Assembly (NCBI GenBank): GCA_020717845.1
Contig: DYDG01000001.1
Location: forward strand, 1 to 56,569
Direction of reading: 5' to 3'
Length of the DNA: 56,569 nt
Source of the DNA: Marinifilum sp.
GTDB taxonomy: Bacteria > UBA9089 > CG2-30-40-21
A program made the position numbers and the translations under genes. Shown here one piece after another: positions 7,611-49,470 of this stretch. The first letter of the stretch is position 1. Every line of letters begins with the position of its first letter. The notes below the pieces were generated by a model. That model did no database searches and was not told the origin of the DNA. It saw only the letters and a list, made by a program, of their open reading frames with translations.

Positions 7611-7628
7611 TTTTTTACCTCTCATACT

Positions 7629-8754: not shown

Positions 8755-8758
8755 TTTA

Positions 8759-8980: not shown

Positions 8981-9828
8981 TTGGTTTTCCTCTCAATCTT
9001 TTTAACGCTTTTGGCCAGTTTCTTTCCTTCGGAATTCAACCGGCGTTCCAGCTTCTTTATGTCTTCTTCAGGCGGTAAAAGTTCAGGTTTGATTCCGCTC
9101 TTGCCCAAAAGCTCGCGAACATCTTTATTGTTCTTGATATGCTCGCCGGTGATCGCCGTCTCTCCGTGCAAATCGTTTTTTTTGGTGTTAAAACTAGTGA
9201 TTTCGGCCGCAAGGTCTTTGGCTTTGATGGTGATGGTGGGTAAAAAGTCCGCAAGCGGACGTTTCTCAGGGGCGCCCAGTTTCTTTTTCATCTCCAAGGT
9301 TGTATAGCCGCCAAAAAGCGAGTGATCACCTTTACTGCGTAAACGGGCAAACCCTTCGCCGTCAATGCCCCGTTCATAGGCAATACAGGAAAGCTCTGAT
9401 TCCGTATCCGCCAGCTTTTCGCGTGCCCGCAGGCGTTCCACAAGGGATATACGCTCTTCCAAAAGTTCCTGTTTACGTGTTTGAATGGCAAAATAGCTTT
9501 GCGCAAAAGCTATCTGCTCCTTACGCGGATCGCCGTTTTGGGCGATTAAATAACAGGCATAGCGGGTCAACATGATGTCGTCAACTTGGCGCTCTGTGCC
9601 TGACCCAATGGGAACCATTTTGCTGACATCAGCAAAATGGTCGGAAACAGCCTGCCCGGCGTTCAGGCAAGCTGTTTTGGCTTTATCAACAACCTGTAAA
9701 AAATTTCGCCACTGGGTGTAATCTAAAAGCCTTTGAATATCGCGGGCTATCCAATATTCAACACCATTTTGAACATACGCTGATTCTTCAAAGGTCTTGT
9801 TTAATTGAACAATAAGTTCTTTTTTCAT
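8977..9828 (-). CDS. dinD: DNA-damage-inducible protein D (DinD)-like protein
   Basis: Collinear similarity to E. coli DinD as I recall it (W.AR.L..LL.Y...R.F..V..+AK.AC...G....DHF, L+RYACYL+.QNGDP, FAIQTR+QEL). ATG 9828 has GGAGAG 9 nt upstream; the ORF track opens at TTG 9855. Confidence 0.8.
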
Positions 9829-9868
9829 GACATGTGACTCTCCGTTACAATACAAAATTTCATTCAGG

Positions 9869-10349: not shown

Positions 10350-10681
10350 TTTCTTATTGATTTCATATTATACCATGTGAGAATACTTAAGTCAATCTAA
10401 AAAATTGGAACAGATCATCACAGCCATCAATGACTCTGTTGATTTACTACCGTTCAGCATCTTAGGCATACATTATATGGTTGCTCGGTTTGCCTGAAAC
10501 ACAACATGGAGCATGCTGGTCGTTGAGCCTGTCGAAATGTGGTCTCACAGAAATTGACTAAATAATCACAATCATTAATGCCTGGTCTATGGTGCCCACA
10601 GCAAATAGAGACAGCAGCCCGCGTTTGGAAGCATTAAACCAGGAGTAGCCTGGAGCACCATTCATTGCCTACAAACAGGCA

Positions 10682-13552
10682 TTACAATCCAACCCCACAT
10701 TCCCGCAAAAACCGTCCAGTATATGAATCCTCATTCCTTGCCACATCTTCAGGCGTGCCGACAGCTACTATCTGTCCGCCTTCATCCCCACCCTCTGGGC
10801 CAAGGTCAATGACATAATCAGCGGTTTTGATTACATCTAAGTTATGTTCAATAATAACCACTGTATTGCCAGCATCCCTAAGCCTTAAGAGGACATTCAA
10901 TAGCAGATGAATGTCTGCAAAATGAAGACCAGTGGTTGGCTCATCAAGCAGATAAAGGGTTTTGCCTGTAGAGCGTTTGCTCAATTCTGCAGAGAGCTTC
11001 ATCCTTTGAGCCTCTCCGCCAGAGAGGGTGGTTGCTGATTGTCCAAGCCTAATATATGAAAGACCAACATCCATCAAGGTTTGCAGCTTGCTATGCAGAG
11101 AGGGGATGGCCTTAAAAAAGCCCCACGCCTCTTCCACAGTCATGTCAAGGACAGCGGCAATGCTTTTTCCTTTACACCATACCTCCAATGTTTCCTTGTT
11201 ATACCTTTTCCCTTTGCATACCTCACATGGGACATAGACATCAGGCAAGAAATGCATCTCTATCTTAATGATCCCATCTCCCTGACATGCCTCGCACCTG
11301 CCTCCTTTAACATTAAAGCTAAACCTTCCTGGAGCATACCCCTTCATCTTTGCCTCAGGCAACAATGAGAAGAGCTCTCGAATATGGGTAAATGCTCCGG
11401 TATAGGTAGCAGGATTGGATCTTGGTGTTCTGCCAATAGGCGATTGGTCAATGTTTATCACCTTATCCAGATGCTCCAATCCAGAAACCTTTTCATATTT
11501 GCCTGGCTGAGTATGGCTGTTATATAATTTTTGCATCAAAAGCGGATAAAGGATCTCTCCAACAAGACTGCTCTTGCCAGAGCCTGACACCCCGGTAACA
11601 CAGACGAATAACCCCAAAGGGATCTGGACAGTAATGTTTTTCAGATTATGATGACATGCCCCGGTTATTTCCAAAAACTTCTTACTGCGACATCGTTTAG
11701 CAGGAACAGGAATAACCAGATCACCTCGAAGGTATTTACCAGTAGGAGAGTCCTTGCTGGCTATGATATCCTCAAGGCTTCCCTGAGCCACAATCTTACC
11801 GCCTGCTTCCCCTGCTCCTGGACCAAGGTCAACAATAAAATCTGCCTGCCTGATAGTTGCCTCATCATGCTCTACCACAATAAGGGTATTGCCTATGTCC
11901 CTCAGCTGACACATAGTATTGAGCAGCCTTTGATTATCCCTCTGGTGAAGACCAATACTGGGTTCATCAAGCACATACAAAACCCCAACCAGACCAGAGC
12001 CTATCTGGGTTGACAGTTGAATCCTTTGTGCCTCTCCACCAGAAAGGGTTTTGGTCATCCGATTAAGGGCAAGATAATTCAAGCCAACATTACTCAAGAA
12101 GCCAAGCCTCTCCTGTATTTCCTTCAATATCTTTGCCGCTACAAATCTTTCAAACTCGGTCAAAACAATATTCTCAAAAAAACCCCTTAAGTCCTTGATA
12201 GACATCTCGGTTATCTGACTGATAGACTTCTTGCCTACAGTCACAGAAAGAGCCTCTTTTTTCAACCTTGCCCCATGACAAACAGGACAGGTTCGAACAG
12301 TCATATACCCAGCCATCTCCTCCCGAATCCTTTCTGATTCTGTCTCCTTATGTCTTCGGTCAAGGGTTGGAATCACACCCTCATAACCACCATAAAACCT
12401 TTCCCCATACCTTGTCTGGCAATAATGCCCATCCTTTGAGCCATAAAGAATAAGTCCTTGCTGCTCCTTTGTAAAGTTCCCAAAAGGAACATCCAGCCGA
12501 AACCCTTCCTGTCTGGCTACCCGCTCTATCTGATAGAGCCAGGAAGAGGAAAAGCCCAGGGGAACAATTGCCCCTTCGTAAATGGTTTTTGATTTGTCCG
12601 GCACAATCAAATCAGGATCAATCTCTATCTTAGAGCCAAGCCCTGTGCAGTCTGGACATGCCCCATAAGGGCTGTTAAAGGAAAACATCCTTGGTGACAA
12701 TTCCTCATAGCTAATCCCGCAATCCACACAGGCCAATTGTTCAGAAAAAAGTTTTTCCTCCCCTTCATCAATAACTACCATAACTATTCCCTTAGCAAGA
12801 GCAGAAGCAGTCTCTATGGAATCAGCCAGCCTGCTCCTTGTCTCAGGCTTAAGGATAAGCCTGTCCACAACTATCTCGATACAATGCTTCTTGTTTTTTT
12901 CCAGAGCCAGGAGTGACCCTTCCGAGACCTCTTCAGACAGGTCATATATTTTTCCATCCACTCGAACCCTGACATAACCATTCTTTTTGGCTGAAGCAAA
13001 AACCTGTTGATGCTCTCCCTTTCTCCCTCGAACAACCGGAGCAAGAATCTGAAGTTTTTTGTCCGCTTTTCCTTGTTCGCCCCTTTCATCTGCTTTCAAA
13101 GATTTTTCGTCTAATTCCAACCACAGAGACATGACCTGCTCCACGATCTCGTCCACGCTTTGCCTGCAAATCAGCTTACCGCAATTATAACAATGAGGAC
13201 TACCTATTCTGGCATAAAGAAGACGAAGATAGTCATATATCTCTGTTACCGTTCCTACTGTTGATCGGGGATTTTTTGCAGCTGTTCTTTGTTCGATAGC
13301 AATGGCTGGCGAAAGCCCGCTGATATAATCCACATCAGGCTTTTCCATTTGCTCTAAGAATTGTCGGGCATAAGCAGAGAGGGACTCAACATACCTTCGT
13401 TGTCCCTCAGCATAGATGGTATCAAAGGCAAGAGAAGATTTTCCAGAACCAGAAAGCCCTGTGATTACCACAAGCTTGTTCCTTGGAATCTCCAGGTCTA
13501 TGTTTTTCAGATTGTGCGTTCGAGCACCCTTGATAATAATTTTTTCATCCAA
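10682..13552 (-). CDS. uvrA: Excinuclease ABC subunit A
   Basis: 956 aa with two ABC ATPase modules ([26 protein letters not shown] twice) and zinc-finger cysteines. Confidence 0.97.
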
Positions 13553-13685: not shown

Positions 13686-13928
13686 TCCCCTCTTGAGAGG
13701 GGGCAGGGGTGTGTTCTTTAACCCACAGCCCTCTCATTCCCACACCACTCTTCTGTCCTCGTGTTGTTCCCTCGTCCCCGACTCACTCTCAGACATTCCC
13801 CTACTGTTCACTGGCTGATTATTTCTCTGACAAGCTCTTTTAGTTTCGAAGCACAGTAAGTTTTTATTGCGACACTTCATCCTATCCTCTCAAGAGGATA
13901 ACACACCCCTGCCCCTCTCAAGAGGGGA
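13686..13928. repeat. Nested palindromic element with ~29-bp near-perfect terminal inverted repeats (CCCCTCTTGAGAGGGG word family)
   Basis: Left arm 13686-13715 is TCCCCTCTTGAGAGGGGGCAGGGGTGTGTT. Right arm 13900-13928 is its reverse complement minus one G. An extra half-unit lies at 13882-13898. It lies in the parB-uvrA spacer. Confidence 0.8.
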
Positions 13929-13974
13929 TTGCCAGCAATTCTCCCTTTTCTCCAGTTCGCAAAATCTTGCGCCC

Positions 13975-14826
13975 CTACTGCACCCTTTCCAGAATCCTAT
14001 CCAGATCCTCTTGCGAATAAAACTCTATCTCAATCTTTCCTGCACCCTTTGCTGTTCGACTAATCCTAACCTTTGTGCCAAGAGATTGCATCAGTTTTTC
14101 TATACAAGATTCCATAGCAATATCTATGGCTGGCTTCTCTTCTTTTGTCTGCAATGTTTCACGTGAAACATTCTCTTTCATTTTTTTGACAAGAGCCTCT
14201 GTCTCTCTCACCGAGATACCGTTCTTGACAATCTTCCCGCAGACCTCTTTCTGCTCTGTCTCGCTATCCAGGGACAGAATTGCTCGAGCATGTCCCATGG
14301 AGATTGCCCCCTTGGTCACTTCTTCCTGGATGGACTTGGGCAGCTTTAATAATCGCAGGCTGTTGGCGATAGAGCTTCTATCCTTTCCAACCTTTCTCGA
14401 CAAGTCCTCCTGGGTCAGACGAAACTCTCGAATCAATTGTTGAAACGCCTCTGCCTCTTCCATGGGATTAAGGTCTTGCCTCTGGATGTTTTCGATCAAA
14501 CCAATCTCTAAGGCATCCTCGTTTGACACATCCCTCACGATGGCAGGAACCCTTTCTAAGCCAGCCTCATGGGCAGCACGAAGTCTCCTTTCGCCAGCAA
14601 TCAATTCGTATCCATCCCTGTGAGAACGAACAATTATCGGCTGAATAACACCCTTCTCCATGATTGACTCTACCAGCTCTCTTTGCTTCTCTGGATCAAA
14701 GTATCGTCGCGGCTGATATTCTCCAGGAACAATCTCTGTAATCTTGATCTCTCTGACCATCTCCCCGTTTGCCCTTGCCTCTGGGATTAAAGCATCCAAA
14801 CCCTTTCCTAAAGCTATTCTCTGCAT
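13975..14826 (-). CDS. parB: Chromosome partitioning protein ParB/Spo0J
   Basis: LGKGLDALI, the GERRLRAA CTP-binding motif and an HTH (DLSRKVGKDRSSIANSLRLLKL). ATG 14826 is preferred; the ORF extension to 14931 reads through repeat DNA. Confidence 0.93.
   Translation of the reverse strand: MQRIALGKGLDALIPEARANGEMVREIKITEIVPGEYQPRRYFDPEKQRELVESIMEKGVIQPIIVRSHRDGYELIAGERRLRAAHEAGLERVPAIVRDVSNEDALEIGLIENIQRQDLNPMEEAEAFQQLIREFRLTQEDLSRKVGKDRSSIANSLRLLKLPKSIQEEVTKGAISMGHARAILSLDSETEQKEVCGKIVKNGISVRETEALVKKMKENVSRETLQTKEEKPAIDIAMESCIEKLMQSLGTKVRISRTAKGAGKIEIEFYSQEDLDRILERVQ
14155..14170. promoter_or_regulatory. parS: parS centromere site, a perfect TGTTTCACGTGAAACA palindrome
   Basis: Exact 16-bp consensus read directly, inside the parB coding sequence. 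Confidence 0.85.
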
Positions 14827-14864
14827 CCTCTCTTCACTCCTTTGTTGATAATTTTTTATCGTTT

Positions 14865-14929
14865 CGACTTTGCTCAACGACCGCATTCGGTCCCTGAGCA
14901 CTGTCGAAGGGCGACTTTGCTCAACGACC
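14865..14929. repeat. Direct repeat CGACTTTGCTCAACGACC x2, 47-bp period
   Basis: Perfect 18-mers at 14865-14882 and 14912-14929. GCTCAACGACC also occurs in inverted orientation at 10518-10528. Confidence 0.8.
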
Positions 14930-14956
14930 ACACTTCGACAGGCTCAGTGACCGGAA

Positions 14957-14982
14957 TAGAGACGCAAATTTTTGCGTCTCTA
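14957..14982. repeat. Hairpin TAGAGACGCAA-ATTTT-TGCGTCTCTA, with a second copy at 29357-29382
   Basis: Perfect 11-bp stem. The flanks GGAA...CAAT are also shared with the 29353-29386 copy. It sits 9 nt past the stop of the 14991-17093 gene. Confidence 0.8.
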
Positions 14983-14990
14983 CAATGTCC

Positions 14991-17093
14991 TCACGCCTTC
15001 TGGTAAAACCAATAGTATGCTGAAAAACATACATAATAATGTTTCAGCTCCCGATGTAGGGGAAGGCTTATCCTTGTCTGCCTCGAGGTTATCTTGTTTC
15101 CAGGAATTTCATACACTGCCTCTGTCCAGGCATTGTCTGCATTCTCATGTGTCCATACATTCAGGAACTCCCCATTCACCCAGACCTCTATGGGTGTATA
15201 GGTTGATGTCCTCTTGACCATCTTTAGCCCTTTCCCAGGAATAGTCCGAACCACCATGCTCTCTCCACCAGTAATCTGCCTTCCTGCATCGACCACTACT
15301 GCTGACGGATTGTTCTGGTAAGGATACATGCAAGCCTCATCCTGATAGATCAAGCCATAAAACATCCCTGCCTGTGTTTCCCAGAATTTGTAGTGATGAG
15401 CCTTTTCGTTTTCAATATCCCCAACATCAACATAGTCAACCAATCTATACCCCTCTAACTCATTGTTAACAGCATAAACCTTATCCCCTTTGCGGGCAAG
15501 GCTCCAGTCAACCTTATAAACGGTCATGGGCGAAGGGCTGCCGGCAATGGTTGAGTCAATAAGCTTGAACTGACAGATTTCTTCTTTTAACATGCCTATC
15601 TTGTCAAAACTAAACCAGCTTGGATAGATGATAAAATAGTCGGGATATTTTTTTTGGTCAAGTGATTCCAGAAATTCAAAGATGCTTCCAGCCCCATTGA
15701 CCCATGCCCAGCCAGCCTTGTTTGTTCCAAGACCAAGGAGGTCGATTACATATCTATCCCCCAGATACTTTACTGCCCCAAGATCATTAACCGCAACCAC
15801 TGCATCACTGGGAATGTTTTTTCCTATCCATTCCCCAAGAGCCATTTGTTGGTTGTAGATGTCTTTGCAATTTTTTCCATAGGCTACAGAAAAATACAGG
15901 GTATTCAATATGCCAAATAATAGGAAAAAAGAGGCTATGAAAACAAAGCCAACCCTTGTCTTTTTTTCCCCTTTTCCCTCTTTTTCGTCCAATGGCTGAC
16001 AAATCAGCCGGACAAAAAGAGAAAGCCCGCTAACCATAAAGATCAAAAACAAAGGATAAAACGGAATAAGATACCGATGCCAGTGCCATTTAACCGGAAG
16101 GGAAACACAAAGGGAACAAAAGCCTGTCATCAGCAAGCAAATGGTCAATGTCCCAATCCCCAGAGCCTTTTCTCGTATCTCTTTTGTTATAAAATATAAC
16201 ACCCCAATGACTGCAAAAAATAATGAGAATGGGGCAAAATAAATTGACTCCTGTTCTTCATTGGCATACATAGCCGGGATATACTTGCCCTCACACCCAA
16301 AGAATATATCCTTCATGACATAGAAAAAATACTTGCCTGCTGTCGCCGCTATATCCAGCATGTTTCCATTTGGTCTGGAAAGAGGGGACTTGGCAACCAT
16401 GGTGTTAAATGTCAGGCTTCCTGTAAAGGCATAGTTCATGATGACAAAGATCATTCCAAACCCTACAGGTATGAGAAAATAATAGTTTCGTTCCTTACGC
16501 AAAAAGAAGATAAAGCCAAAAAGCACACCAGAAAGGATCAATCCCTCTGGCCTGGTCAAAGCCATAATGCTGGCAAAAACTATGGTCCAGAGATATTTTT
16601 TCTTTTCTGCCTCAAGAAGAAAGGCATATAGGACAGCCAGAATAATACACATAAAAAAGCCTGTCTCCATCCCGCAAAAGAAACTCCAGAGGATTTGACC
16701 ATTAAACAAAAAAAGTAATCCTAAGATAATGCCTGTTGTCTCATTGAATAACCTTCTGCCAATATTGAAGATCAGCAGCGAGGAAACAATCAAAGAGACC
16801 AGCCCCAGTCCAAGCGAATAGGCAAGGATGCCTGTCTTGCCCAGGCCAGCCAAAAACCCAAGGCTCAAAATAAAGGGGTACAACAGACTGGTTGCCCCAG
16901 TAGTTGGACTATCCCCAGTATTGTATTGAAAGGCAGCCCCTTGACAGATTTGCTTGGCATACTGAAAAAAGATAAAGGTGTCATCCAGTGGCGGGGCAAG
17001 ATGGCCGTCTGTATAAAAAAACATTGACCTTAAAAAAACGGCTCCAAGAAGGATCGCTATGGTGCTGAATAATATTGTGTATCGTGTTTGCAT
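14991..17093 (-). CDS. Large polytopic membrane protein. The N-terminal ~500 aa look GT-C (ArnT/PMT-style) and a ~170-aa beta-rich domain follows. Paralog of 17157-19307
   Basis: At least 12 hydrophobic segments. The first loop is YTDGHLAPPLDDTFIFFQYAK with an acidic DD pair. TRPEG motif present; the C-terminus ends YYWFYQKA. ATG 17093 has GAGGAG 5 nt upstream; the ORF track opens at GTG 17132. Confidence 0.6.
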   Translation of the reverse strand: MQTRYTILFSTIAILLGAVFLRSMFFYTDGHLAPPLDDTFIFFQYAKQICQGAAFQYNTGDSPTTGATSLLYPFILSLGFLAGLGKTGILAYSLGLGLVSLIVSSLLIFNIGRRLFNETTGIILGLLFLFNGQILWSFFCGMETGFFMCIILAVLYAFLLEAEKKKYLWTIVFASIMALTRPEGLILSGVLFGFIFFLRKERNYYFLIPVGFGMIFVIMNYAFTGSLTFNTMVAKSPLSRPNGNMLDIAATAGKYFFYVMKDIFFGCEGKYIPAMYANEEQESIYFAPFSLFFAVIGVLYFITKEIREKALGIGTLTICLLMTGFCSLCVSLPVKWHWHRYLIPFYPLFLIFMVSGLSLFVRLICQPLDEKEGKGEKKTRVGFVFIASFFLLFGILNTLYFSVAYGKNCKDIYNQQMALGEWIGKNIPSDAVVAVNDLGAVKYLGDRYVIDLLGLGTNKAGWAWVNGAGSIFEFLESLDQKKYPDYFIIYPSWFSFDKIGMLKEEICQFKLIDSTIAGSPSPMTVYKVDWSLARKGDKVYAVNNELEGYRLVDYVDVGDIENEKAHHYKFWETQAGMFYGLIYQDEACMYPYQNNPSAVVVDAGRQITGGESMVVRTIPGKGLKMVKRTSTYTPIEVWVNGEFLNVWTHENADNAWTEAVYEIPGNKITSRQTRISLPLHRELKHYYVCFSAYYWFYQKA

Positions 17094-17128
17094 AATTCTC
17101 CTCAATCTCATGATTGAATAATTCAATA

Positions 17129-17150
17129 GCACAGACAGAAATGTCTGTGC
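17129..17150. repeat. Hairpin GCACAGACA-GAAA-TGTCTGTGC (ACAGAC/GTCTGT family)
   Basis: Perfect 9-bp stem between the two paralogous membrane-protein genes. Confidence 0.75.
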
Positions 17151-17156
17151 TACTAA

Positions 17157-19307
17157 TTACCTCTGATAAAACCAATAGTGTGCTGGAAAGTATTCTGCCT
17201 TATCCATGGTCAGAATATTTATCCTTGTTCGTTCCATAGTCACCCATTCAGCAGGAATATCCAGGACAGCCTCTGTCCAAACGTTGTCGTTCCCTCTGTC
17301 TTCCTTCCATGCCTTTTTGTGTTTGTTATTAACCATTACCTGGATATTAAACTTGCCCTTGTGTCTGACAATCATCTTCATGTTTGTTGACGGCCTTGTT
17401 TTTATGACCATCTCTTCCCCTCCAGAAAGAACCCTGCCGCCGTCAGCAACAACCTTTTCCTGATCAGATTCTTTTAGAAATGGAAGTTTCAAGGCATAGC
17501 TAATTGCCCCTGGTTTATGCTCTGTCTCCCAAAATCTGTAATTATGAGTTTTTTCGTCTACAAGATCAGCTACATCAAGGCTGTCTATCAATAGCCAGCC
17601 ATCCAGCTCATTTAATACAGATACGCAGGAATCCCCTTTGTGAAGCCATGCCTTTTCTGCCTCATAAACAACTAAGGGTGAAATCTGTTCAATGCTTACC
17701 ATCTTAGAGGAATAGACCCTTTTGCCAAGCAAACCAGATTGCTCAAGCCCAAGCTCATTCTCTGGCAGAATAAAAAATTGGGGATAAACATCCCTTGACT
17801 CTAAGGCTTCAAAGATGCTTCCTGCCCCATGCCTAAAGGACGCAGCCAGCCCATTACTGCCTATTCCTGAAATATCAACAAACCTTCTCTCGCCAAAATA
17901 TGCCAGAGGACTCATCCCTTTAGTTGCAATAACAGCATCTGGAGGAAACTTTTCGTTTATCATCTTTCCCATAGTAATCTCATGGTAATAGGTGTTATAG
18001 CAGCTTTTGCCATAAATGACGCTAAAACAAACCGTGCTGCATAAGGAAAAGAGCAAAAAGAAACAGGAGAATCCATAGAATATCTCCTTATTAGAAGAAG
18101 CCGTGGTTTTGGGAATTAAGGCAGCAATCGCCTGGGAAAACTGGTATGTTCCAATAGCTACCAGAATGATAAAAATCGGATAATACGGAATTACAGCTAT
18201 GTTCCACAAGGTGTGTGCTGGATACAAAAAGGATGAAAGCAATATCCCGCCAAAAAACCAGAGAAAGGTCAATGATACTGTGCCCAAATGTTTTGAGATT
18301 GCTTCCTTAGCAGCCAGGGATAATCCTATTAATCCAAAGAAAAGGGCAAAGGGTGGAAAATAAACAGAGGTCTGCCCTTGATCAGGGTTGTTAATATTAA
18401 AGAACTCTCCACTAAATCCAGAGAATATGTCCTTTGAGAGGAAGAAAAAATACCTGCATGCCTGACCTATTATTTCAGGAAGAGGTGTGTTTGCCTGAAA
18501 AAGAATGGATTCTGAATGAATGGTGTTTGGCAGGAAGTTTCCTGTAAACAGAAAGTTCAGACACAAATGAAATCCCCCGATTGCAGCTGGGATAATAGCC
18601 ATGATACCCTTTGAAAAATCTATCTGCTTAAAAGCAATCAGGTTAATAAAAAAAACCATTGTCAATAGCCAGACCAAAACAATCCCTTCAAATCGGACAA
18701 GAGCCAACAATGAGGCAAAAATCATCACACCAATGTATTTGTTGGTGTTTATTGCCCTAAGGAAACAATAGATTGTCAGCAAGATAAGTGTTGAAAACAA
18801 AAGAACTTCTGTGCCGCCAAGGTATGTCCACAGGATTGGTCCATTCAACAGAAAAAGAAAGGCTGCCAGCAGCCCTGTTTCTTTATTGGCAACCTGCTGC
18901 CCTATCAGAAAAAGAAGCCCCGCAGAAAGCAAAAGGAGCAATAGCCCTGAGAAAAAAGCATAAACGATTATTCCTGCACCCTTTATCCCCAGCACAAAGG
19001 CTGGCATCAAAAGCAGGGAATACAACAGCCCGCCAGCACCTGTGCTGGATGTATCACCTGATGAGTATCTAAAAAACTCACCTGCAGCTAATTGTTTGGC
19101 ATATTGAAACTGATAAAATGCCTTAGATGCTGGCAAAGAAAGATGCCCATCTGTATAAAAAAGCATGGCAACCAAATAGAGAAACGACACCAGCATCCCT
19201 GCCCCAAGGATAATCCATGTTTCTTTACTTATCTTTATCTGCGGAATAGCACCCCCAGCAGAGACTGCCTGCGATCCTTCAACCTTTTTTTTCTTTACCT
19301 TTCCCAC
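17157..19307 (-). CDS. Large polytopic membrane protein, GT-C-like paralog lacking the loop-1 acidic pair
   Basis: 716 aa, collinear with 14991-17093 (FYTDGHL...FQYAKQ, SGD.S.TGA..LLY, same C-terminal domain ending HYWFYQR). The GTG start is 1 nt after the parA stop, with GGGGAGG 7 nt upstream. Confidence 0.6.
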   Translation of the reverse strand: MGKVKKKKVEGSQAVSAGGAIPQIKISKETWIILGAGMLVSFLYLVAMLFYTDGHLSLPASKAFYQFQYAKQLAAGEFFRYSSGDTSSTGAGGLLYSLLLMPAFVLGIKGAGIIVYAFFSGLLLLLLSAGLLFLIGQQVANKETGLLAAFLFLLNGPILWTYLGGTEVLLFSTLILLTIYCFLRAINTNKYIGVMIFASLLALVRFEGIVLVWLLTMVFFINLIAFKQIDFSKGIMAIIPAAIGGFHLCLNFLFTGNFLPNTIHSESILFQANTPLPEIIGQACRYFFFLSKDIFSGFSGEFFNINNPDQGQTSVYFPPFALFFGLIGLSLAAKEAISKHLGTVSLTFLWFFGGILLSSFLYPAHTLWNIAVIPYYPIFIILVAIGTYQFSQAIAALIPKTTASSNKEIFYGFSCFFLLFSLCSTVCFSVIYGKSCYNTYYHEITMGKMINEKFPPDAVIATKGMSPLAYFGERRFVDISGIGSNGLAASFRHGAGSIFEALESRDVYPQFFILPENELGLEQSGLLGKRVYSSKMVSIEQISPLVVYEAEKAWLHKGDSCVSVLNELDGWLLIDSLDVADLVDEKTHNYRFWETEHKPGAISYALKLPFLKESDQEKVVADGGRVLSGGEEMVIKTRPSTNMKMIVRHKGKFNIQVMVNNKHKKAWKEDRGNDNVWTEAVLDIPAEWVTMERTRINILTMDKAEYFPAHYWFYQR

Positions 19308-19308
19308 T

Positions 19309-20079
19309 CTATGCCTCCCCTTGTTTTGTTAAAAACTCTCTGGCAAAGGTCATGTAGCTCTCTGCCCCCTTAGAACCAATATCATAAAGAACAATCGGCT
19401 TCCCAAAGCTTGGCGCCTCAGAAAGACGAACATTGTTTGGAATAAGCGTCTTATATGCTTTATCAGCAAAACAGGTAGTGATTTCTTTAACCACCTGCTG
19501 AGCCAGGTTTGTTCTCGGGTCATACATGGTCAAAAGAATACCCTCTGTCTTTAGTGAAGGATTCAGCTTCCCATGAACCAGGGTAATAGTGCTAAGGAGC
19601 TGGCTTAATCCTTCAAGGGCATAATATTCACATTGAATGGGTATCAAAACCGTATCTGCTGCAACCATACTGTTTAGCGTAAGCAAGCCAAGCGATGGCG
19701 GGGTATCAATGAAAATAAAATCATAGTCATCCTTTACCCCAGAAAGAGCCTTTTTAAGCATAAACTCCCTTTCTTCTAAAGGGACAAGCTCTATCTCTGC
19801 CCCAGTAAGAACAACATTAGAAGGAACAATGAACAACTGCGGAATCTCTGTCTTGCAGATAGCCTCTTCAATCGTAGCATTTCCGACTAATACATTATAC
19901 ATATTGGGATTAGACTTGTGCTTATCAATCCCAAGCCCGCTGGAACTGTTTCCCTGTGGGTCCATGTCCACCAACAACACCTTTTTCCCGACCATCCCCA
20001 GACAGGCAGAGAGGTTAATGGTCGTAGTGGTTTTTCCTACGCCACCCTTTTGGTTTGCAACTACGATTGTTTTACCCAT
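19309..20079 (-). CDS. parA: Chromosome partitioning ATPase ParA/Soj
   Basis: 256 aa with the deviant Walker A NQKGGVGKTTT and collinear Soj similarity. Confidence 0.95.
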   Translation of the reverse strand: MGKTIVVANQKGGVGKTTTTINLSACLGMVGKKVLLVDMDPQGNSSSGLGIDKHKSNPNMYNVLVGNATIEEAICKTEIPQLFIVPSNVVLTGAEIELVPLEEREFMLKKALSGVKDDYDFIFIDTPPSLGLLTLNSMVAADTVLIPIQCEYYALEGLSQLLSTITLVHGKLNPSLKTEGILLTMYDPRTNLAQQVVKEITTCFADKAYKTLIPNNVRLSEAPSFGKPIVLYDIGSKGAESYMTFAREFLTKQGEA

Positions 20080-20131
20080 GTTTTTATCCTCGCTTTACTC
20101 TATATGAATGGCTACAAAACTCATCAATAAC

Positions 20132-20258
20132 GTAACCGTTCAGGGTGTAATGAAGGGAAACATGGAAAAAGGGGAAGTAAATCATTAATATTCTATTTCT
20201 TCCTTTTCCATTTTCCCATACTTTCCCCTTTTTCCTTCATTACACCCTGAACGGTTAC
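20132..20258. repeat. 127-bp palindromic element with perfect 25-bp terminal inverted repeats (copy A)
   Basis: GTAACCGTTCAGGGTGTAATGAAGG at 20132-20156 and its exact reverse complement at 20234-20258. The core is GGAAAA/GGGGAA-rich. The right arm overlaps the rsmG stop codon. Confidence 0.9.
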
Positions 20259-21013
20259 AACGGCTTTTTCTCCGGCACACCCGTTCTCCTTGGATATTCA
20301 ATCGGTGTTTGTCTCACCTTTAACACCTTTATCAATACTCGTTTACTGCCATCTGGCAAAACCACACCTTTGAGAGCCTCAATCTCTCCCCCAAGCATCT
20401 GGATAACAGGCTCTGCCTCCCTTGCCTCAATCTCCCCTGTTTGCCCCTTCATAGCCAGGAAGCATCCATTTATCTTCACAAATGGCAAACAATACTCTGA
20501 CAGAATATTCATTTTTGCTACAGCCCGGGAAGTAACAAGGTCATATGCCTCTCGGTGCTCTTCAGATTGTCCACAATCCTCTGCCCTTCCCTCTAATATC
20601 TCAAATATCTCAAACTCACAACTATCCCTTAGCTTACCCCGCAGGGTATAGAGAAAGTTAAGATGCTTCTGACTGGCATCCAGGACAGTTAATTGTATCT
20701 CTGGCGAATATATCTTTAGAGGCACACCAGGAAATCCTGCCCCGCTCCCCACATCCAGCACCTTTGTCCCTGGGATTAAATTCACAGCCAGAACACAACT
20801 GAGAGAATCTAAAAAATGCTTGGTGATTATCTCCTGTTCATTCCGAATTCCAGTAATATTTACCCTTTGAGCCTCCTGTACAAGCAAGGAAAGATAGGAC
20901 ATAAGCTGATCAACATGGGTTTTGCTTAAGGCAATCCCCATTTGCTCTGCCTCTTGTTTTAATGCTTCAGCAGTATGTGTTGTGAACAAATAATTGCCTC
21001 CTGTTCCTGCCAA
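20255..21013 (-). CDS. rsmG: 16S rRNA (guanine527-N7)-methyltransferase RsmG (GidB)
   Basis: SAM-binding motif VLDVGSGAGFPGVPLKI and family-typical length. The start is uncertain (TTG 21013 or a nearby codon). Confidence 0.88.
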   Translation of the reverse strand: MAGTGGNYLFTTHTAEALKQEAEQMGIALSKTHVDQLMSYLSLLVQEAQRVNITGIRNEQEIITKHFLDSLSCVLAVNLIPGTKVLDVGSGAGFPGVPLKIYSPEIQLTVLDASQKHLNFLYTLRGKLRDSCEFEIFEILEGRAEDCGQSEEHREAYDLVTSRAVAKMNILSEYCLPFVKINGCFLAMKGQTGEIEAREAEPVIQMLGGEIEALKGVVLPDGSKRVLIKVLKVRQTPIEYPRRTGVPEKKPL

Positions 21014-21027
21014 TGGAAAACAACAGA

Positions 21028-21100
21028 CACAGGCTGGAAGCCTGTGCTACTCAAACAAGCTGGAAGCTTGTGCTACTATACAGACAGGCTGGAAGCCTGT
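21028..21100. repeat. Three tandem hairpins of the ACAGGC-TGGAA-GCCTGT type
   Basis: Located at 21028-21046, 21055-21071 and 21084-21100. The third one encodes the last residues and the stop of mnmG. Confidence 0.8.
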
Positions 21101-23022
21101 GCCTCTCTTCTCAATCTCTCTAAGTAAATCATCAACACTGAAATGTCTGACACCCGCACCCCTGATATCCTTGAAGCCTGACCAAGGGAAACAGGTCTTA
21201 TTGTCGAGAGCTTTTCCCTTGTTTCACGCGATAGAGCAATAACAGAACCGTAATCAAAATCTGGTGGGATGAGCCAGTTCTCCATACGCTTAAAATCCTG
21301 GATATGGGCTAATTGTCTCCTTATATACCCCTCATACTTTATCTCTATCTCCACCGCTTCCTTTATTTCAGGGGATAATTCCTCTTCTGGCACAACACTC
21401 TTAGCAGATAAAAAGCCCTCTACATCCTTATACGTTATCCCTGGATGCCGTAAAATCTGAGCAAGAGGGCAGGGTTCTTTTAATTCCCCCAATTTTTCTT
21501 CCAATTGGCTCCCGGACAACAAGAGATGAACAGTACTTGTCCTACCCTTGCCCTGCATAGCCGTAATGCGTTCTAATCTATCCCGTTCCCTGGCTATTAA
21601 AATCTTTTTCGTTAATAATCCCTGATATTGTTCCTCTGATATCAATCCAAACCCATATCCATATTCCATAAGCCTTTGATCCGCATTATCATGCCTCAGA
21701 AGTAATCTATACTCTGCCCTTGAGGTAAACATCCTATAAGGCTCTACTGTTCCCTTAGTAACTAAGTCATCGATCAAGACTCCGATATAGGCTTGAGACC
21801 TTTTAAGAATAAATGCCTCCTGCCCTCTGATCTTCAAGACAGCATTTATCCCAGCCATAAGCCCTTGTCCCGCAGCCTCTTCGTATCCAGAGGTGCCATT
21901 TATCTGCCCAGCAAGATACAGTCCCTCAATCAACTTTGTCTCAAGGATAGGTTTAAGCTGGGTTGGGAAAACAAAATCATACTCTATCGCATATCCAGCC
22001 TTAAGTATCCTGACCTCTTCCAATCCAGGAATAGTCCGCAGCATTTCTAATTGAACGTCCTCAGGCAGACTGGTAGAAAGCCCATTTAGGTAAAGCTCGT
22101 CTGTATCGCGCCCCTCTGGTTCAATGAACACCTGATGGCTCGTTTTTTCCGAAAACTTAACAAGCTTATCCTCAATGGAAGGACAATATCTTACCCCAGT
22201 TCCTTCAATCTTTCCGCCATAAAGTGGAGATTTATCAAGATTATCCCTGATTATCTTATGAGTTAACAGGGTAGTATGGGTAATGTAGCAAGGAACCTGC
22301 TCTCTTTCTATTCTTTTAGTAGAAAAGGAAAATGGTTTTGGTTCTTCATCCCCGTCTTGAACCTGAAGCCCAGAAAAATCAACGGTTTTTCTATCTATCC
22401 TGGGACTGGTTCCGGTTTTTAGCCTTCCCATGTTTAATCCCAAATTTTTAAGGGAGTTTGACAATTCCGTCGAGGCAAGCTCTCCAATCCTGCCGCCAGG
22501 AATAGAGTCTCCCCCTACATGAATCAATCCATTCAAAAAAGTACCTGTAGTAATAATCAATGCCTGCGTAGGATAAAAAACACTCTGGCTATCCTTGCCA
22601 GAGATATCCTGCTCTTGAGCCTTTATACCAACAACCATCGACCCTTCGACCAATATCTCTTCAACCAGGGCTTGCCGTATCTCCAGATTTTTCTGCGATT
22701 CCACTGCAGATCTGGCTGCAAGCTGGTATTGCCTTCTATCTGCCTGTGCACGGAGGGATCTAACCGACGGACCCTTCTTAGTATTAAGCATTCTAAACTG
22801 AATACCCGTCTTATCGATAAGCCTGGCCATCTCACCGCCAAGGCTGTCTATCTCCCGGACTATCTGACCCTTAGCCAGCCCGCCTATTGCTGGATTGCAG
22901 GACATCTGTCCAATAGTATCAATATTCATGGTTAACAAAAGGGTTTTCATCCCCATCCTGGCAGCCGCCAAAGCCGCCTCACATCCAGCATGTCCTCCTC
23001 CAACAACAATTATATCATGCAC
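21076..23022 (-). CDS. mnmG: tRNA uridine-5-carboxymethylaminomethyl modification enzyme MnmG (GidA)
   Basis: 648 aa with the FAD motif [12 protein letters not shown] and collinear GidA similarity. Confidence 0.96.
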
Positions 23023-23307: not shown

Positions 23308-24666
23308 ATGGAAACAGTAACACAGCTTTTAGAAGAGTATAAGATTCAGATCAGAGAGAATCAGTCCTATGGGATTGGCGGGCAGAATTGCTTTCCTTTT
23401 CATGCCTTTGAAGGCACCCTTCCTCATATGCCCAAGCTTGCTCTTGAGGTGTATGATACCCCGGATGAGGAATGGCCAGAGGCTGTGGCTGAGGTCTATC
23501 GGGATGTGTGGAACAATCCAGTTGAATGGGCAAAAACTGTTGAAGCTAAATATAAGCCTGATATGATCTGCTTGCAGCTTGCCAGCACAGACCCAATGGG
23601 TGATGATGCCTCTCCTGAAAAAGCAGCTGATATAGCTAAAAGCGTTGCTGAGGCAATAAGCCTGCCATTGATTGTCTATGGATGCGGAAATGCGGAAAAG
23701 GATGGCAAGGTATTAAAAAAGGTGGCTGAGGCATTAGCTTTCAAAAAATCACTTATCGGCCCAGTAGCAGAAGGGAATTATAATACAATTGGGGCAACCA
23801 TTCTGGCTTATGATCATTATGTTATTGCCCAAACACCAACAGATGTCAACCTTTGCAAACAGCTTAACATTCTTTTGTCCAACCTTGGAGTGTCTCTTGA
23901 CAAGATCATTATTGACCCTACCCCTTCTGCCCTTGGTTATGGGTTGGAATATACCTATTCTATCATGGAAAAGATCCGCTGTTCTGCCTTCCAGACCAAT
24001 GATGATAAACTGAATCTGCCAATGATCGGAAATATTGCCCGTGAGGTCTGGAAGATAAAAGAGGTAAAGATAGATGATCCGTGCATGGGGAATACCAAAA
24101 CACGAGGTATTATGTTTGAAGCAATGACAGCTATCTCATATATCCTTGCAGGTTCAGATATTGTGGTGCTCCGTCATCCACAGACACTGGCTTTGGTTAG
24201 AAAATGGCTGGCAGACATGTCTGGCACAAAGGCAGAGGTGAAAACCGAGCCGATAGGGGTTAGTAGTCAGGGATTAGAGGTGAGTTGTGAAAAGTTAGCA
24301 GATAAGAGCATAATGCAGGATACAGAAGCAGAATCAGTTAATGAAAATAAAATCGTCCAGTCTGCCTTCTCTGCCTTCCGCGAACTGGGTGAAGGGCTGG
24401 CAGGGGATGTGTATGCCGCAGCAATAGCCCTGGATCTGAAACAACATGGGCTTGAGCCTGAAAAGGATGTTCCATTAGCAATAACCTATAAGGGTGTAGA
24501 GATTGGACAGATTAAGAATAATATCCGTGTTGGCAATACCCTTGTGGTCATAGGCTGCAAGGATAAGAATATCCTGCATAATTACCTTGCATCACAAGGG
24601 CTGTCTTACGGAATAGGATTGTCGTTTGAAGAGACATTGAATATTGTTTACGCAGAAAGGGGGTAA
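23308..24666 (+). CDS. acsD: Corrinoid Fe-S protein small subunit (AcsD/CdhD delta-like) fused to a C-terminal degenerate GxxExxY module
   Basis: The first ~305 aa are collinear with AcsD/CdhD (DMICLQLASTDP, LPLIVYGCGN, IIDPTPSALGYGLEYTYS). Residues 345-452 carry the GxxExxY pattern (ELGEGLAGDVY...YKGVEIG...). Confidence 0.8.
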   Translation: METVTQLLEEYKIQIRENQSYGIGGQNCFPFHAFEGTLPHMPKLALEVYDTPDEEWPEAVAEVYRDVWNNPVEWAKTVEAKYKPDMICLQLASTDPMGDDASPEKAADIAKSVAEAISLPLIVYGCGNAEKDGKVLKKVAEALAFKKSLIGPVAEGNYNTIGATILAYDHYVIAQTPTDVNLCKQLNILLSNLGVSLDKIIIDPTPSALGYGLEYTYSIMEKIRCSAFQTNDDKLNLPMIGNIAREVWKIKEVKIDDPCMGNTKTRGIMFEAMTAISYILAGSDIVVLRHPQTLALVRKWLADMSGTKAEVKTEPIGVSSQGLEVSCEKLADKSIMQDTEAESVNENKIVQSAFSAFRELGEGLAGDVYAAAIALDLKQHGLEPEKDVPLAITYKGVEIGQIKNNIRVGNTLVVIGCKDKNILHNYLASQGLSYGIGLSFEETLNIVYAERG

Positions 24667-24680
24667 AAGGGTAACCGATT

Positions 24681-25061
24681 ATGGGAATGACACATGTAAC
24701 GGCTGCGGTGGTTAATCTGAGAGATCCAGAAAAACGTTGGGAAGAATTATTCCTTGTGGATACTGGTTCCATTGATTGTATGGCTCCTGGGAGATGTTTG
24801 CGAGAGATTGGGATTGAACCCAGTGGAAAACGGACATATGAGCTGGCTGATGGGACAGAAATAAAGATGGATATTGCTGCTGTCCAGATAGAGTTTATGG
24901 GCGAGATAGTTGGTGCAACCATAATCTTTGGCAAGGATGATGTAGAACCTATACTGGGTGTAACAGCTCTTGAGTCGGTTGGAATTGAGGTTGATCCTCA
25001 GAACCAGCGACTGAAACGGCTGCCTGCTGTTCGGTTGAAACGAGTTAAGGCTTCAGTTTGA
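24681..25061 (+). CDS. Retropepsin-like clan AA aspartyl protease (single DTG domain)
   Basis: 126 aa. LFLVDTGSIDCMAP active-site motif; ILGVTALESVG; size and pattern of single-domain bacterial/archaeal retropepsin-like proteins. Confidence 0.7.
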   Translation: MGMTHVTAAVVNLRDPEKRWEELFLVDTGSIDCMAPGRCLREIGIEPSGKRTYELADGTEIKMDIAAVQIEFMGEIVGATIIFGKDDVEPILGVTALESVGIEVDPQNQRLKRLPAVRLKRVKASV

Positions 25062-25084
25062 ACAATGCGTTAACAGAAAAGGTA

Positions 25085-25105
25085 ACACAAGCATCTTGCT
25101 TGTGT
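25085..25105. repeat. Hairpin ACACAAGCA-TCT-TGCTTGTGT
   Basis: Perfect 9-bp stem between the protease and the CODH-like gene. Related words occur at 51926-51941 and 52153-52160. Confidence 0.7.
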
Positions 25106-25177
25106 AGCTCTCAATCTGGAGCTGACTTGCGGACATATAAGATTGGAGAAAAGTTGGAGGAAAAATGGAGGAAAAAT

Positions 25178-26938
25178 ATGAAAAGCTTTACAGAACGATT
25201 AGCAAAACATAAAACCTGTCCCTTTTATGAAGAGGGTGCCTGCTGCCGGGCATGTTACATGGGTCCGTGCAGGATTACGGATAAGGCAAAAGAGGGTGTT
25301 TGCGGTGCCACAGATTCTACCATCTCTGCCAGAAACCTTGGCAGAATGGCTGCTGCTGGCGCATCATCCCTGTCTACAGCTGTTCTTTCTCTGTTAGACA
25401 GCCAGAAGAAAAAGGAATGGTTCTCCCCACAAGGGGAAAAGGGACTGGATCTGAGCAAGGTTCTACCTATAGAAAGGGTTAGCCTGCTCAATCGTCTGCA
25501 TCTTATCCCACGAAATATCCAGCGGGAGATAGTAGAGCTGCTTCATCGGGTCCACATGGGCGTTGACCAAGAGTGTGAACATATTCTTTTTCAAGTTCTT
25601 CGCATGAGCCTTGGCAGTGTGCTTTCATCTGCACTCCTGTCAGCAGACGAAAAGTCATCGATGGTCCATGTTGATACATCTGCACTTTCTCTGGAAAAGC
25701 CAAATGTTATCCTGTTTGGTAATGTCCAATTGAATGATGACAAGGTAAACACTGTCCGTGTAGATTCCTTGCTTAGCTTGGAGGTATTTCTTGCCTCTGG
25801 ACTGGTTGATGTGATATTTGCCGAACAGCTACCAGCATCTATCAACTATATATCTGCCTGTTATCATACTACTTGCGTCTCTGTTTCTTCAGAGGTTGTG
25901 GCTAAGGCAATCGAGAATCAGGTTAAACGCACTCAAGTCTTGAGTTTCAAGGGAACAGTCTCCCAGCCAAAGCTGTCAGCAGGAATACTTAAAAACGCCC
26001 TGATGGATTCAAGTATCCGTGGGATTGTCTGGCTTGCTGGATGTATAGACCCACGCCTTGAAGATAAAAGAAAGAAAATCGTCGAGGAATTGGTTGCTCA
26101 GGATATTCTGGTGATAGTTACTGGCTGTTCCATTAACCAGCTCATGGAGACTGGGCTGCTTCATCAGCCAGTTGCTCCGGTTGGTGGGTTTTTGAAGGAA
26201 TTTTGTGAGAAAACAGGTATCCCGCCAGTGGTCTATCTGGGAAGCTGCTTAAAAGAAGGGGCAGTCATCAGGCTGCTGAATGAGATAAGCAAGTCCGCAG
26301 CCATCGGAGATTTTTCGTCCTTGCCTGTAGGCTTGATCCTTCCCACATGGCGAAGCGAACGGAATATCTCCCTGATGCTTGGAGCCATTGCCTGCGGCAT
26401 AGCGGTTCAAGTTTCTTCCCCTCTTCCAATCAATTCAGAGGTGCGAGGGTTTTTAGAAAATAATTGCAATGAGATTATCCTTGGACATCTCCTGAAGAAT
26501 GATGTCCCTATCGTAGAATATATCAACCGCAAAAGAGAACGGTTGTCGCTTGCTTCATCCTTGAGCCTTTATATGCCAAAAACTTCTATCCTTAAAGATG
26601 ATCTGGATAAGGTGGCTGCGGCTGCATTTTCTGTATACAAGGAATTGGGACATGGGTTGTCTGTTGATATCTATAAAAACGCATTGGTTGTAGAATTGAA
26701 GCAGCTTGGGCTGCAAGCATCTATGGTAAAGGTGCCTATCACCTACCTTGGTTCCATAATCTCTGAGCAGGAGGAATTGCTGGTAGAAAATGCTGGCATA
26801 GTCTGCATAGGCAAGGATGCTGCTGTAAAAAAGCGGTTAAAAAAAGCTCTGACAGAGGCAAATAAGGAACAGGGGCTATATGTCATCTTTGATACGGAGA
26901 TGCTGAGGATAGGGCATATTGTATTGGCAAAAGGATAG
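25178..26938 (+). CDS. CODH (CooS)-like paralog with incomplete C-cluster ligands, fused to a C-terminal degenerate GxxExxY module
   Basis: The N-terminal Cys pattern CPF..GACCRACYMGPCRI...GVCGA is retained, as are GC(I)D, TGC and GSC. There is no HGH, GICCT or VDVQC equivalent. The last 113 aa follow the GxxExxY pattern. ATG 25178 has GGAGGA 8 nt upstream; the ORF track opens at 25058. Confidence 0.75.
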   Translation: MKSFTERLAKHKTCPFYEEGACCRACYMGPCRITDKAKEGVCGATDSTISARNLGRMAAAGASSLSTAVLSLLDSQKKKEWFSPQGEKGLDLSKVLPIERVSLLNRLHLIPRNIQREIVELLHRVHMGVDQECEHILFQVLRMSLGSVLSSALLSADEKSSMVHVDTSALSLEKPNVILFGNVQLNDDKVNTVRVDSLLSLEVFLASGLVDVIFAEQLPASINYISACYHTTCVSVSSEVVAKAIENQVKRTQVLSFKGTVSQPKLSAGILKNALMDSSIRGIVWLAGCIDPRLEDKRKKIVEELVAQDILVIVTGCSINQLMETGLLHQPVAPVGGFLKEFCEKTGIPPVVYLGSCLKEGAVIRLLNEISKSAAIGDFSSLPVGLILPTWRSERNISLMLGAIACGIAVQVSSPLPINSEVRGFLENNCNEIILGHLLKNDVPIVEYINRKRERLSLASSLSLYMPKTSILKDDLDKVAAAAFSVYKELGHGLSVDIYKNALVVELKQLGLQASMVKVPITYLGSIISEQEELLVENAGIVCIGKDAAVKKRLKKALTEANKEQGLYVIFDTEMLRIGHIVLAKG

Positions 26939-48093: not shown

Positions 48094-48129
48094 GTGAGGG
48101 AACTCTGTGAAAAAAGGGAGGTTACGAAG

Positions 48130-49467: not shown

Positions 49468-49470
49468 AAT

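Follow-up and report, generated by a model that had tools for sequence, protein, structure and literature searches.

A tandem pair of predicted GT-C-fold membrane proteins with unequal catalytic motifs separates parA from parB in a Desantisbacteria-type genome

The housekeeping genes mnmG (gidA) and rsmG (gidB) and the partition genes parA and parB have been described as one operon, gidAB-parAB (PMC13438810, PMC2346475). We analysed positions 1 to 56,569 of contig DYDG01000001.1 (the window), where an earlier note had described the minus-strand order mnmG, rsmG, parA, two paralogous membrane-protein genes, here called A and B, and parB. Our open reading frame (ORF) map and Pfam scan returned the same order and coordinates, with A and B encoding 716 and 700 amino acids, respectively, and uvrA following parB (Table 1). 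The four housekeeping genes are those of the canonical operon, in the same order, near oriC and with a parS site inside parB; here, however, parA and parB are not adjacent but stand 4,482 nt apart, separated by the two unrelated membrane-protein genes and by intergenic hairpins, and long hairpin repeats lie between rsmG and parA and between B and parB. The reading that we favour, with reasonable though far from complete confidence, is that A and B are tandem duplicates from an uncharacterised GT-C(A) family, that B is catalytic and A its non-catalytic partner, and that their placement is specific to the lineage.

The partition system itself has the features of a chromosomal ParABS system: ParA carries a deviant Walker A motif, ParB has its N-terminal, helix-turn-helix and C-terminal domains, and the parS site TGTTTCACGTGAAACA is the sole match in the 56.6-kb window at up to two mismatches, with 0 expected by chance. 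As the note had pointed out, the GTG start of gene A, at 19307, lies one base past the parA stop codon (TAG, 19311-19309), and a GGGGAGG sequence is found 8 nt upstream of it, within parA. Gene B begins with an ATG at 17093, which is preceded by GAGGAG and agrees with the start of the orthologue P0009. The longest ORF for parB begins at 14931, and translation almost certainly begins further in, with the ATG at 14826 (MQRIALGKGLDALIP, 283 amino acids), judging from orthologues of the same 283 residues. The genes dnaA and dnaN follow a stretch of ~30% GC at the cumulative GC-skew minimum (region 47600-50714), and the stretch before dnaA is a probable oriC; because dnaA and dnaN adjoin this minimum, we place the locus close to the origin, ~28 kb from dnaA.

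Table 1. Features of the window, with coordinates counted from its first nucleotide, and the basis of each assignment.
Feature	Position	Strand	Basis
mnmG (gidA)	21076-23022	-	Pfam GIDA, E 2e-166
rsmG (gidB)	20255-21013	-	Pfam GidB, E 3e-45
~120-nt hairpin, dispersed repeat, rsmG-parA gap	20134-20256	-	dG -64 kcal/mol, z = -9.65
parA, Soj-type partition ATPase, 256 aa, KGGVGKTT Walker A	19309-20079	-	Pfam AAA_31 7e-71, CbiA 1e-26
Gene A, GT-C-fold membrane protein, 716 aa, GTG start, probable non-catalytic paralog	17157-19307	-	ORF map, A-B alignment, model, Foldseek, family profile
Stem-loop overlapping the gene A stop, in the 63-nt A-B spacer	17118-17160	-	dG -27.4, z = -5.5
Gene B, GT-C-fold membrane protein, 700 aa, probable (predicted) active glycosyltransferase	14991-17093	-	ORF map, alignment, model, Foldseek
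12-bp GC-rich hairpin, 8 nt past the gene B stop, no U-tract	14956-14983	-	sequence, fold
Repeat tract: two 21-nt direct repeats and 25-bp hairpin, multi-copy dispersed	14865-14953	-	repeats, fold, depth
parB (Spo0J), 283 aa from ATG at 14826	13975-14826	-	Pfam ParB_N, HTH_ParB, ParB_C
parS, perfect 16-bp site TGTTTCACGTGAAACA, within parB	14155-14170		motif scan
uvrA, conserved neighbour downstream of parB in the lineage	10682-13552	-	ORF map, synteny
DegT/ArnB/PseC-type aminotransferase	31800-33026	-	best models PseC and ArnB, both below cut-offs
ArnC/GtrB-type polyprenyl-phosphate GT2	33023-33970	-	ArnC model end to end, E 3e-50
dnaA	48094-49467		
dnaN	49611-50714		

Along their full length A and B are collinear paralogs, with 35% identity across 710 alignment columns (E 6e-145), and their alignment bore out the motifs previously noticed in both proteins, FYTDGHL..FQYAKQ, GD..(S/T)TGA..LLY and the terminal YWFYQ. 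To compare their folds with those of known proteins we used AlphaFold2 models, with a mean local confidence (pLDDT) of 78 and a predicted TM-score (pTM) of 0.73 for A and of 76 and 0.76 for B, which were searched against the PDB with Foldseek. The A model matched ArnT (5f15, E 5e-8, TM-score 0.56 normalised on the target), EmbA/B/C (Emb, 9e-8), PglB (2e-7), STT3 (3e-7) and ALG12 (5e-7), together with AglB, ALG9, AftA, AftB and Pmt4; the B model matched STT3 (2e-8), AglB (4e-8), ALG9 (5e-7) and ArnT (2e-6), together with PglB, Emb, AftA/B/D and PIG-U (8imx_U, 7wld_U). Overall, the GT-C matches of the two models fall at E values of 2e-8 to 1e-4, and essentially all significant matches are to GT-C proteins. 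Instead of the 12 or more transmembrane (TM) segments that had been proposed, the helices of the models indicate ~11, together with two juxtamembrane (JM) helices between TM1 and TM2, which DSSP assigned to residues 63-74 and 95-105 of A and 39-50 and 71-81 of B. Two such helices in the first extracytoplasmic loop are the defining feature of GT-C(A) proteins (PMC12041299). The C-terminal region is indeed common to A and B, although at ~260-280 residues it is longer than the ~170 first estimated, and the models resolve it into an extracytoplasmic alpha/beta subdomain followed by a beta-sandwich of ~150 residues. In both proteins the sandwich resembles a carbohydrate-binding module (CBM), and that of A gave separate Foldseek matches to CBM16 (2zex), CBM4 (3p6b) and the CBM35 of 7byv. 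At its other end, A begins with a polybasic N-terminal tail predicted to be cytoplasmic. Other GT-C enzymes also carry CBMs, as in EmbA/B/C, AftD and GT136 (PMC3044687, PMC11127046).

The suggestion that the N-terminal halves are GT-C-type glycosyltransferases therefore stands at the level of the fold, but membership of the ArnT/PMT family does not. The PMT_2 model (Pfam PF13231; GT83/GT39) scored 15.6 bits in A and 17.2 bits in B against a gathering cut-off of 26.1, and reached E<0.01 in only 5 of 67 family members. Apart from these sub-threshold matches, no Pfam or NCBIfam model covers either protein; neither A, B nor any of the 67 relatives matched the Pfam families Arabinose_trans or AftA, and searches of PDB chain sequences with A, B and the 67-member profile returned nothing meaningful, including no Emb or Aft chain. 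A and B are thus predicted GT-C(A)-fold proteins of a separate, unnamed family, and not ArnT or PMT proper. This family is large: an exhaustive profile search recovered 895 cluster representatives (50% identity) at E<=1e-30, mostly of ~700 residues and matched end to end. A genome scan, run with a pattern from eight sequences that contain the aspartate pair DD and hence blind to relatives that lack it, found at least 569 loci, in Desantisbacteria, Latescibacterota, Gemmatimonadota, Eisenbacteria, Chloroflexota, Sumerlaeota, Pseudonocardiales and other groups. Members share the signature P-L-D-D-x-[FY]-I-x-F-Q-Y-A, R-P-E-G, H-x-x-R-Y, N-D-x-G-A and a terminal Y-W-F-x-Q. The closest database relatives of A and B (82-86% identity) belong to Candidatus Desantisbacteria, and the source of the window is groundwater or aquifer metagenomes; homologues are named "hypothetical protein", "Glycosyltransferase RgtA/B/C/D-like" (UniRef) or, mistakenly for P0011, "MATE family efflux transporter".

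To compare the two proteins residue by residue, we aligned 165 family members to the family profile hidden Markov model and took the 58 columns in which conservation reaches 80% or more across 143 representatives. The median member retains 54 of these columns and the 5th percentile lies at 48; B retains 56, while A retains 43 and its orthologues 41-43. The most telling difference falls on the DD columns, which are 94% and 98% conserved in the family. B has D37-D38 directly before the first JM helix, whereas A has S61-K62 at the aligned positions, in a part of the A-B alignment that is ungapped and flanked by identical motifs on both sides. All GT-C(A) enzymes have an essential aspartate at the tip of JM helix 1, and in AftB this residue is D62 of a DD motif, the D62A variant being inactive (PMC12041299); such an aspartate is present in B and absent from A. 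The ArnT/PMT-style acidic motif attributed to the first loop of both proteins is accordingly found in B and missing from A. In A numbering, the losses are L60A, D61S, D62K, I65Y, S93G, M166T, P206F, K266E, R370I, Y371A, W449M, D464G, G466S, L482I and W552K, all before residue ~553. Beyond this point A keeps the whole conserved C-terminal set of the family (D575, E585, H588, Y590, D622, G624, R625, E631, R648, W677, Y711, W712 and Q715). The losses are stepwise across lineages: A-type proteins at ~41% identity (P0023 and the first copy of L014) keep DD and lack R370, Y371, D464 and G466, the 59% orthologue P0008 of locus L005 has Ser-Glu, and the window and its close relatives have Ser-Lys. Nevertheless, purifying selection on A is as strong as on its neighbours, since the ratio of nonsynonymous to synonymous substitution rates (dN/dS) against orthologues is 0.10-0.12 for A, 0.09-0.11 for B, 0.07-0.10 for parA and ~0.09 for parB, and the 716-residue frame of A is intact in every orthologue. 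Because DD and other invariant residues are lost while the C-terminal residues are kept and dN/dS is ~0.1, A is most likely a non-catalytic paralog, which by analogy with known systems probably acts as a glycan- or lipid-binding partner in a putative complex with B. By analogy with characterised GT-C(A) enzymes, B is a probable active glycosyltransferase that would depend on a polyprenyl-phosphate sugar and carry a CBM-like C-terminal domain. What had been called an envelope-modifying pair is therefore more likely one enzyme and one non-catalytic paralog. This asymmetry, between a predicted active B and a degenerate but conserved A, is what the sequences add here.

We then asked how widely the arrangement is kept. 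The order parA-A-B-parB(-uvrA) was present in all Desantisbacteria-type contigs recovered (L001-L005, L009-L011, L013 and L015), so that the insertion is lineage-wide, as a synteny check suggested with the original description was meant to establish. It persists in L002, where the genes upstream of parA differ, and in L005, where A is only 59% identical. The spacing between parA and A is 1 nt in the window, L001-L004, L010 and L011, 37 nt in L015 and 50 nt in L005; that between A and B is 63 nt with a hairpin in the window, 90 nt in L001 and 15 nt in L005; and at least 98 nt always separate B from parB (164 nt in the window). In L090 (242-3152), parA, whose product is 68% identical to ParA of the window, overlaps by 8 nt an A-type gene encoding P0023, in which DD is kept and R370, Y371 and D464 are lost; no B-type gene start was found in the 190 nt that remain downstream before the contig ends. 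L014 carries a tandem pair without parA upstream. Beyond the Desantisbacteria-type clade, nearly all genomes have one copy of the family gene, at a distance from par genes (~70 other loci examined); it follows rplL in L006 and L007 and stands in an unrelated context in L018. The split of parA from parB is thus a stable trait of Desantisbacteria, and it is most simply explained by insertion of the pair into a constitutively expressed operon.

Three structured elements, in the rsmG-parA gap, at the A stop codon and between B and parB, interrupt the array. All three lack a U-tract on their 3′ side, and relatives do not share their sequences. The first is a perfect-stem hairpin where the depth of DNA contigs is ~3 times that of the flanks, and it probably separates the rsmG and parA transcription units. 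The second is not kept in relatives, L001 having a different hairpin and L005 only its short spacer. The third comprises the hairpin after gene B and the repeat tract, both of which had been anticipated and both of which we recovered, the direct repeats lying at 14865-14885 and 14912-14932; its two hairpins fold far better than shuffled sequences (dG -63.5, z = -7.0), and DNA depth over the tract is 52 against 14.5 in the flanks. Because the approximately threefold peaks in DNA depth coincide with them, we regard two of the three elements as dispersed repeats, which resemble REP (repetitive extragenic palindromic) or MITE (miniature inverted-repeat transposable) elements. A repeat-bearing hairpin also occurs after parB (~13900-13960) and a related 19-mer at 10521-10539, just downstream of the uvrA stop codon. 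An Rfam search of 13700-20400 gave only sub-threshold matches of the long hairpin to plant microRNA precursors, which we rejected as artefacts. A scan for promoter consensus sequences found 11 sites against 11.8 in shuffles, that is, no excess, and the terminator-like sites that came out of the scan fall mostly inside coding sequence.

In one aquifer metatranscriptome, low-depth contigs cover rsmG, parA, the 5′ portion of A, some stretches of B, and parB. One RNA-derived contig (19184-19340) spans the parA stop codon and the A start, the junction at which translational coupling had been suggested, and two others (14945-15257 and 14470-14940) tile the 3′ end of B, both hairpins and the 5′ end of parB, with a break only inside the repeat. 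These contigs fit a parA-A-B transcript with read-through into parB, and they make the proposed coupling of A and B expression to parA plausible.

The sugar donor is a further matter. Two genes of the window had been called arnB-like and arnC-like and put forward as a source of an aminosugar donor for A and B. The identities held: the first encodes a DegT-family aminotransferase and the second a full-length ArnC/GtrB-type GT2 protein with the two C-terminal TM helices typical of that type, and their ORFs overlap by 4 nt. We found no link between them and A or B, from which they lie 13.7 kb away, and in the 80 other loci compared no GT2 or DegT homologue comes within 6 kb of the family gene. 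LptF/G, a lipid A acyltransferase, MurJ and a GT4 protein are encoded in the window as well, from which we conclude that the envelope is of the lipopolysaccharide type. A pathway to a lipid-linked aminosugar donor is in principle available, and a tie between these genes and A or B is speculation.

Taken together, we propose the following model. Each protein would have a cytoplasmic N-terminus, ~11 TM helices and an extracytoplasmic region made of the alpha/beta subdomain and the CBM-like beta-sandwich. By analogy with every characterised GT-C(A) enzyme, B would use a sugar donor linked to polyprenyl phosphate and work on the outer face of the inner membrane; D37-D38, at the tip of JM helix 1, would form its putative catalytic centre, and the sugar would pass to an envelope glycan held by the lectin-like C-terminal domain. 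The ArnC/GtrB-type GT2 of the window gives indirect support to a donor of this type. A would serve as the glycan- or lipid-binding partner of B, without catalysis of its own. The one-base spacing, the putative Shine-Dalgarno sequence inside parA and the overlap of the two genes in one deeper lineage suggest that A is expressed from the parA transcript; B would follow on the same mRNA, and parB would be transcribed by read-through past the two hairpins, from a promoter of its own within the 164-nt spacer, or in both ways. Such a placement would most likely provide steady expression at a housekeeping level.

Several points weigh against this model. For all family members, the donor, the acceptor and the activity are predicted from the fold alone, and the models were built on shallow alignments (18 sequences), the B model being of low confidence in the linker and in some of the C-terminal domain (pLDDT <50 at residues 553-606). 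Pseudoenzymes sometimes relocate their catalytic residues (PMC10211241), and P0008 keeps a glutamate at the second motif position, so some A-type proteins may still be active. The RNA contigs come from a single metatranscriptome, are of low depth and unstranded, and may include DNA. Moreover, A-type genes stay beside parA across lineages in which ParA is only 68% identical, a conservation somewhat above that predicted for a purely neutral insertion.

It is accordingly possible, though we think it unlikely, that both proteins are active with different specificities and form two sequential envelope-modifying enzymes, A relying on other acids such as E167 or E207. A keeps the GT-C fold, the family-conserved acids E167, E207 and D478 and strong purifying selection; the glutamate of P0008, the DD of earlier-branching A-types and the few single-copy members with Ser-Asp in place of DD (P0096 and P0158) point the same way. 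Against this, the 98%-conserved second aspartate is a lysine in the window and its close relatives, a reversal of charge at a position whose equivalent is indispensable in AftB, and the loss extends to K266, R370, Y371, D464, G466, W449, W552 and others, which leaves A below the 5th percentile of the family. One of the Ser-Asp variants, P0096 (L089 6001-8079), is a singleton, which led us to reject the idea that such variants are always paired with a canonical copy; they are therefore probably still active and not analogues of A. The gene for P0096 starts 9 nt after a ubiB/ABC1 kinase gene and lies near dxs and a polyprenyl synthase gene, which hints at a link to isoprenoid lipid carriers.

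A second alternative to a catalytic B with a non-catalytic A in a lineage-specific location concerns the location: the pair may be functionally tied to ParA and ParB, by ParA-dependent positioning of the glycosylation machinery or by expression of envelope modification coupled through the cell cycle to origin segregation. The tight adjacency of parA and A (1 nt, or an 8-nt overlap) where ParA is 68-79% and A only 41-59% identical, and its survival of the rearrangement upstream of parA in L002, speak for such a tie. ATPases of the ParA/MinD family do position envelope machines, as BcsQ does for cellulose synthase. We nonetheless hold this to be improbable, as the family is single-copy outside the clade and never next to par genes in the ~70 other loci, L014 has its pair without parA upstream, the gap between parA and A widens to 37 nt in L015 and 50 nt in L005, and ParA, ParB and parS look entirely canonical. 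The polybasic N-terminal tail of A was considered as a ParA-specific feature and rejected, since it also occurs in P0010 and P0022, homologues that are not linked to par genes. In all of this we saw nothing to indicate a role of the pair in partitioning the chromosome. The boldest form of the idea, to which we give very little credence, is that A is a non-catalytic GT-C "lectin" subunit translationally tied to ParA, which would join the partition ATPase to an envelope glycosylation machine in Desantisbacteria, for example if ParA determined where glycans are modified, or if a cell-cycle checkpoint linked envelope growth to origin segregation. If true, it would represent a new class of cargo or partner for chromosomal ParA.

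Two further explanations can be set aside. That A and B are transporters or scaffolds sharing only a polytopic architecture with GT-C enzymes could be argued from the lack of any significant Pfam, NCBIfam or PDB sequence match and from the transporter name that NCBI gives to P0011, but it is highly improbable: the ~35 top structural matches of either model are all GT-C enzymes or PIG-U and none is a transporter, B has DD at the canonical position, both proteins show the sub-threshold PMT_2 match and UniRef names the homologue a glycosyltransferase. That gene A is a decaying duplicate without function, as its many lost invariant residues might suggest, is effectively refuted by a dN/dS equal to that of parA, parB and B, by the intact frame and fully conserved C-terminal residues and by its retention across lineages down to 41% identity.

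Among characterised systems, ArnT (GT83, with PMT_2 and GT39), the best structural match of A, shares with A and B the polytopic GT-C(A) fold and the two JM helices and, with B, the acidic pair at the start of the first. The two proteins differ from it in their much larger extracytoplasmic C-terminal region with its CBM-like sandwich and in the lack of an arnT-type operon context or an NCBIfam ArnT match. EmbA/EmbB/EmbC and AftA/AftB/AftD combine, like A and B, a GT-C(A) domain with C-terminal lectin-like or CBM domains (PMC3044687, PMC11127046), and AftB has its DD motif at JM helix 1 as B does. PDB entries show EmbA and EmbB working as heteromers of paralogs, an arrangement with which the putative A-B complex may be compared. 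The Emb pair is not known to have lost a catalytic motif, whereas A has lost its own. The differences from the Emb and Aft proteins are that A and B show no membership at the sequence level, that they have ~700 residues against ~1,050 in solved Emb chains, and that the host is a diderm-type candidate phylum with no arabinogalactan pathway in view. PIG-U has a GT-C fold, is not known to have glycosyltransferase activity and is a lipid- or glycan-binding subunit of the glycosylphosphatidylinositol (GPI) transamidase; it appears among the Foldseek matches of B, and one family member weakly matches its Pfam model. Since PIG-U is eukaryotic, has no CBM-like domain and is partnered by a protease and not by an active paralog, it offers a functional analogy only. 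The Pmt1-Pmt2 heteromers are a comparable case of paired GT-C proteins. Finally, in the Gtr (GtrA/GtrB/Gtr*) and GT136 systems the GT-C enzyme, which in some cases carries a CBM, draws on a polyprenyl-phosphate sugar supplied by a GtrB/ArnC-type GT2 (PMC11127046). The GT2 of the window recalls these three-component periplasmic glycosylation systems, but it lies with the aminotransferase in another operon, at the distance given above and without co-localisation elsewhere, and no flippase was identified next to either.

The wider family showed few constant neighbours. Clustering of the ORFs flanking 83 loci gave only phylum-specific neighbours and no partner gene kept across phyla. In a sister lineage (L006 3108-5228; L007 1685-3805), the homologue, present in one copy and 39% identical to B, begins 22 nt past rplL; here too the family gene adjoins a housekeeping gene of high expression. 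In Latescibacterota and Gemmatimonadota (L019-L045), a uvrA-like paralogue, ~27-30% identical to UvrA of the window, is found repeatedly on the downstream side of the family gene, in most cases with its start 2-5 kb (up to ~7 kb) past the end of that gene, an arrangement that echoes the parB-uvrA adjacency of the window. Two Saccharomonospora homologues (L008 8001-10178; L041 6001-7989) are convergent with dprE2-dprE1 and adjoin gtrA, glfT2, an emb-type arabinosyltransferase gene and ubiA, an arabinogalactan gene neighbourhood. As this dprE1/dprE2 linkage is limited to those two loci and absent from the other Pseudonocardiales loci, we rejected "arabinofuranosyltransferase" as a label for the whole family.

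Elsewhere in the window, just past uvrA, positions 6159-9855 hold a type I restriction-modification remnant (the N-terminal part of HsdR, and HsdS) and a gene with a Bro-N domain, and look like a defence or mobile islet. A CdhD-like ORF (23308-24666) and an ORF resembling carbon monoxide dehydrogenase (CODH)/Prismane proteins (25058-26938) each end in an in-frame match to PD-(D/E)XK_3 (PF13366), fusions that are unusual within an acetyl-CoA synthase/CODH cluster.

The locus brings to light a large GT-C family that has a clear signature and is missed by current domain libraries. It also offers a natural pairing of a predicted active GT-C protein with a degenerate one, in which the stepwise loss of residues is visible across lineages, and this allows direct comparison with the evolution of GT-C pseudoenzymes and heteromers, as in Emb, the PMT pairs and PIG-U. 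The cultivable Saccharomonospora and Saccharopolyspora, which carry homologues, would provide a practical route to the biochemistry of the family. For Desantisbacteria, the normally invariant adjacency of parA and parB can be stably broken throughout a lineage, which matters for the operon-based annotation of partition systems.

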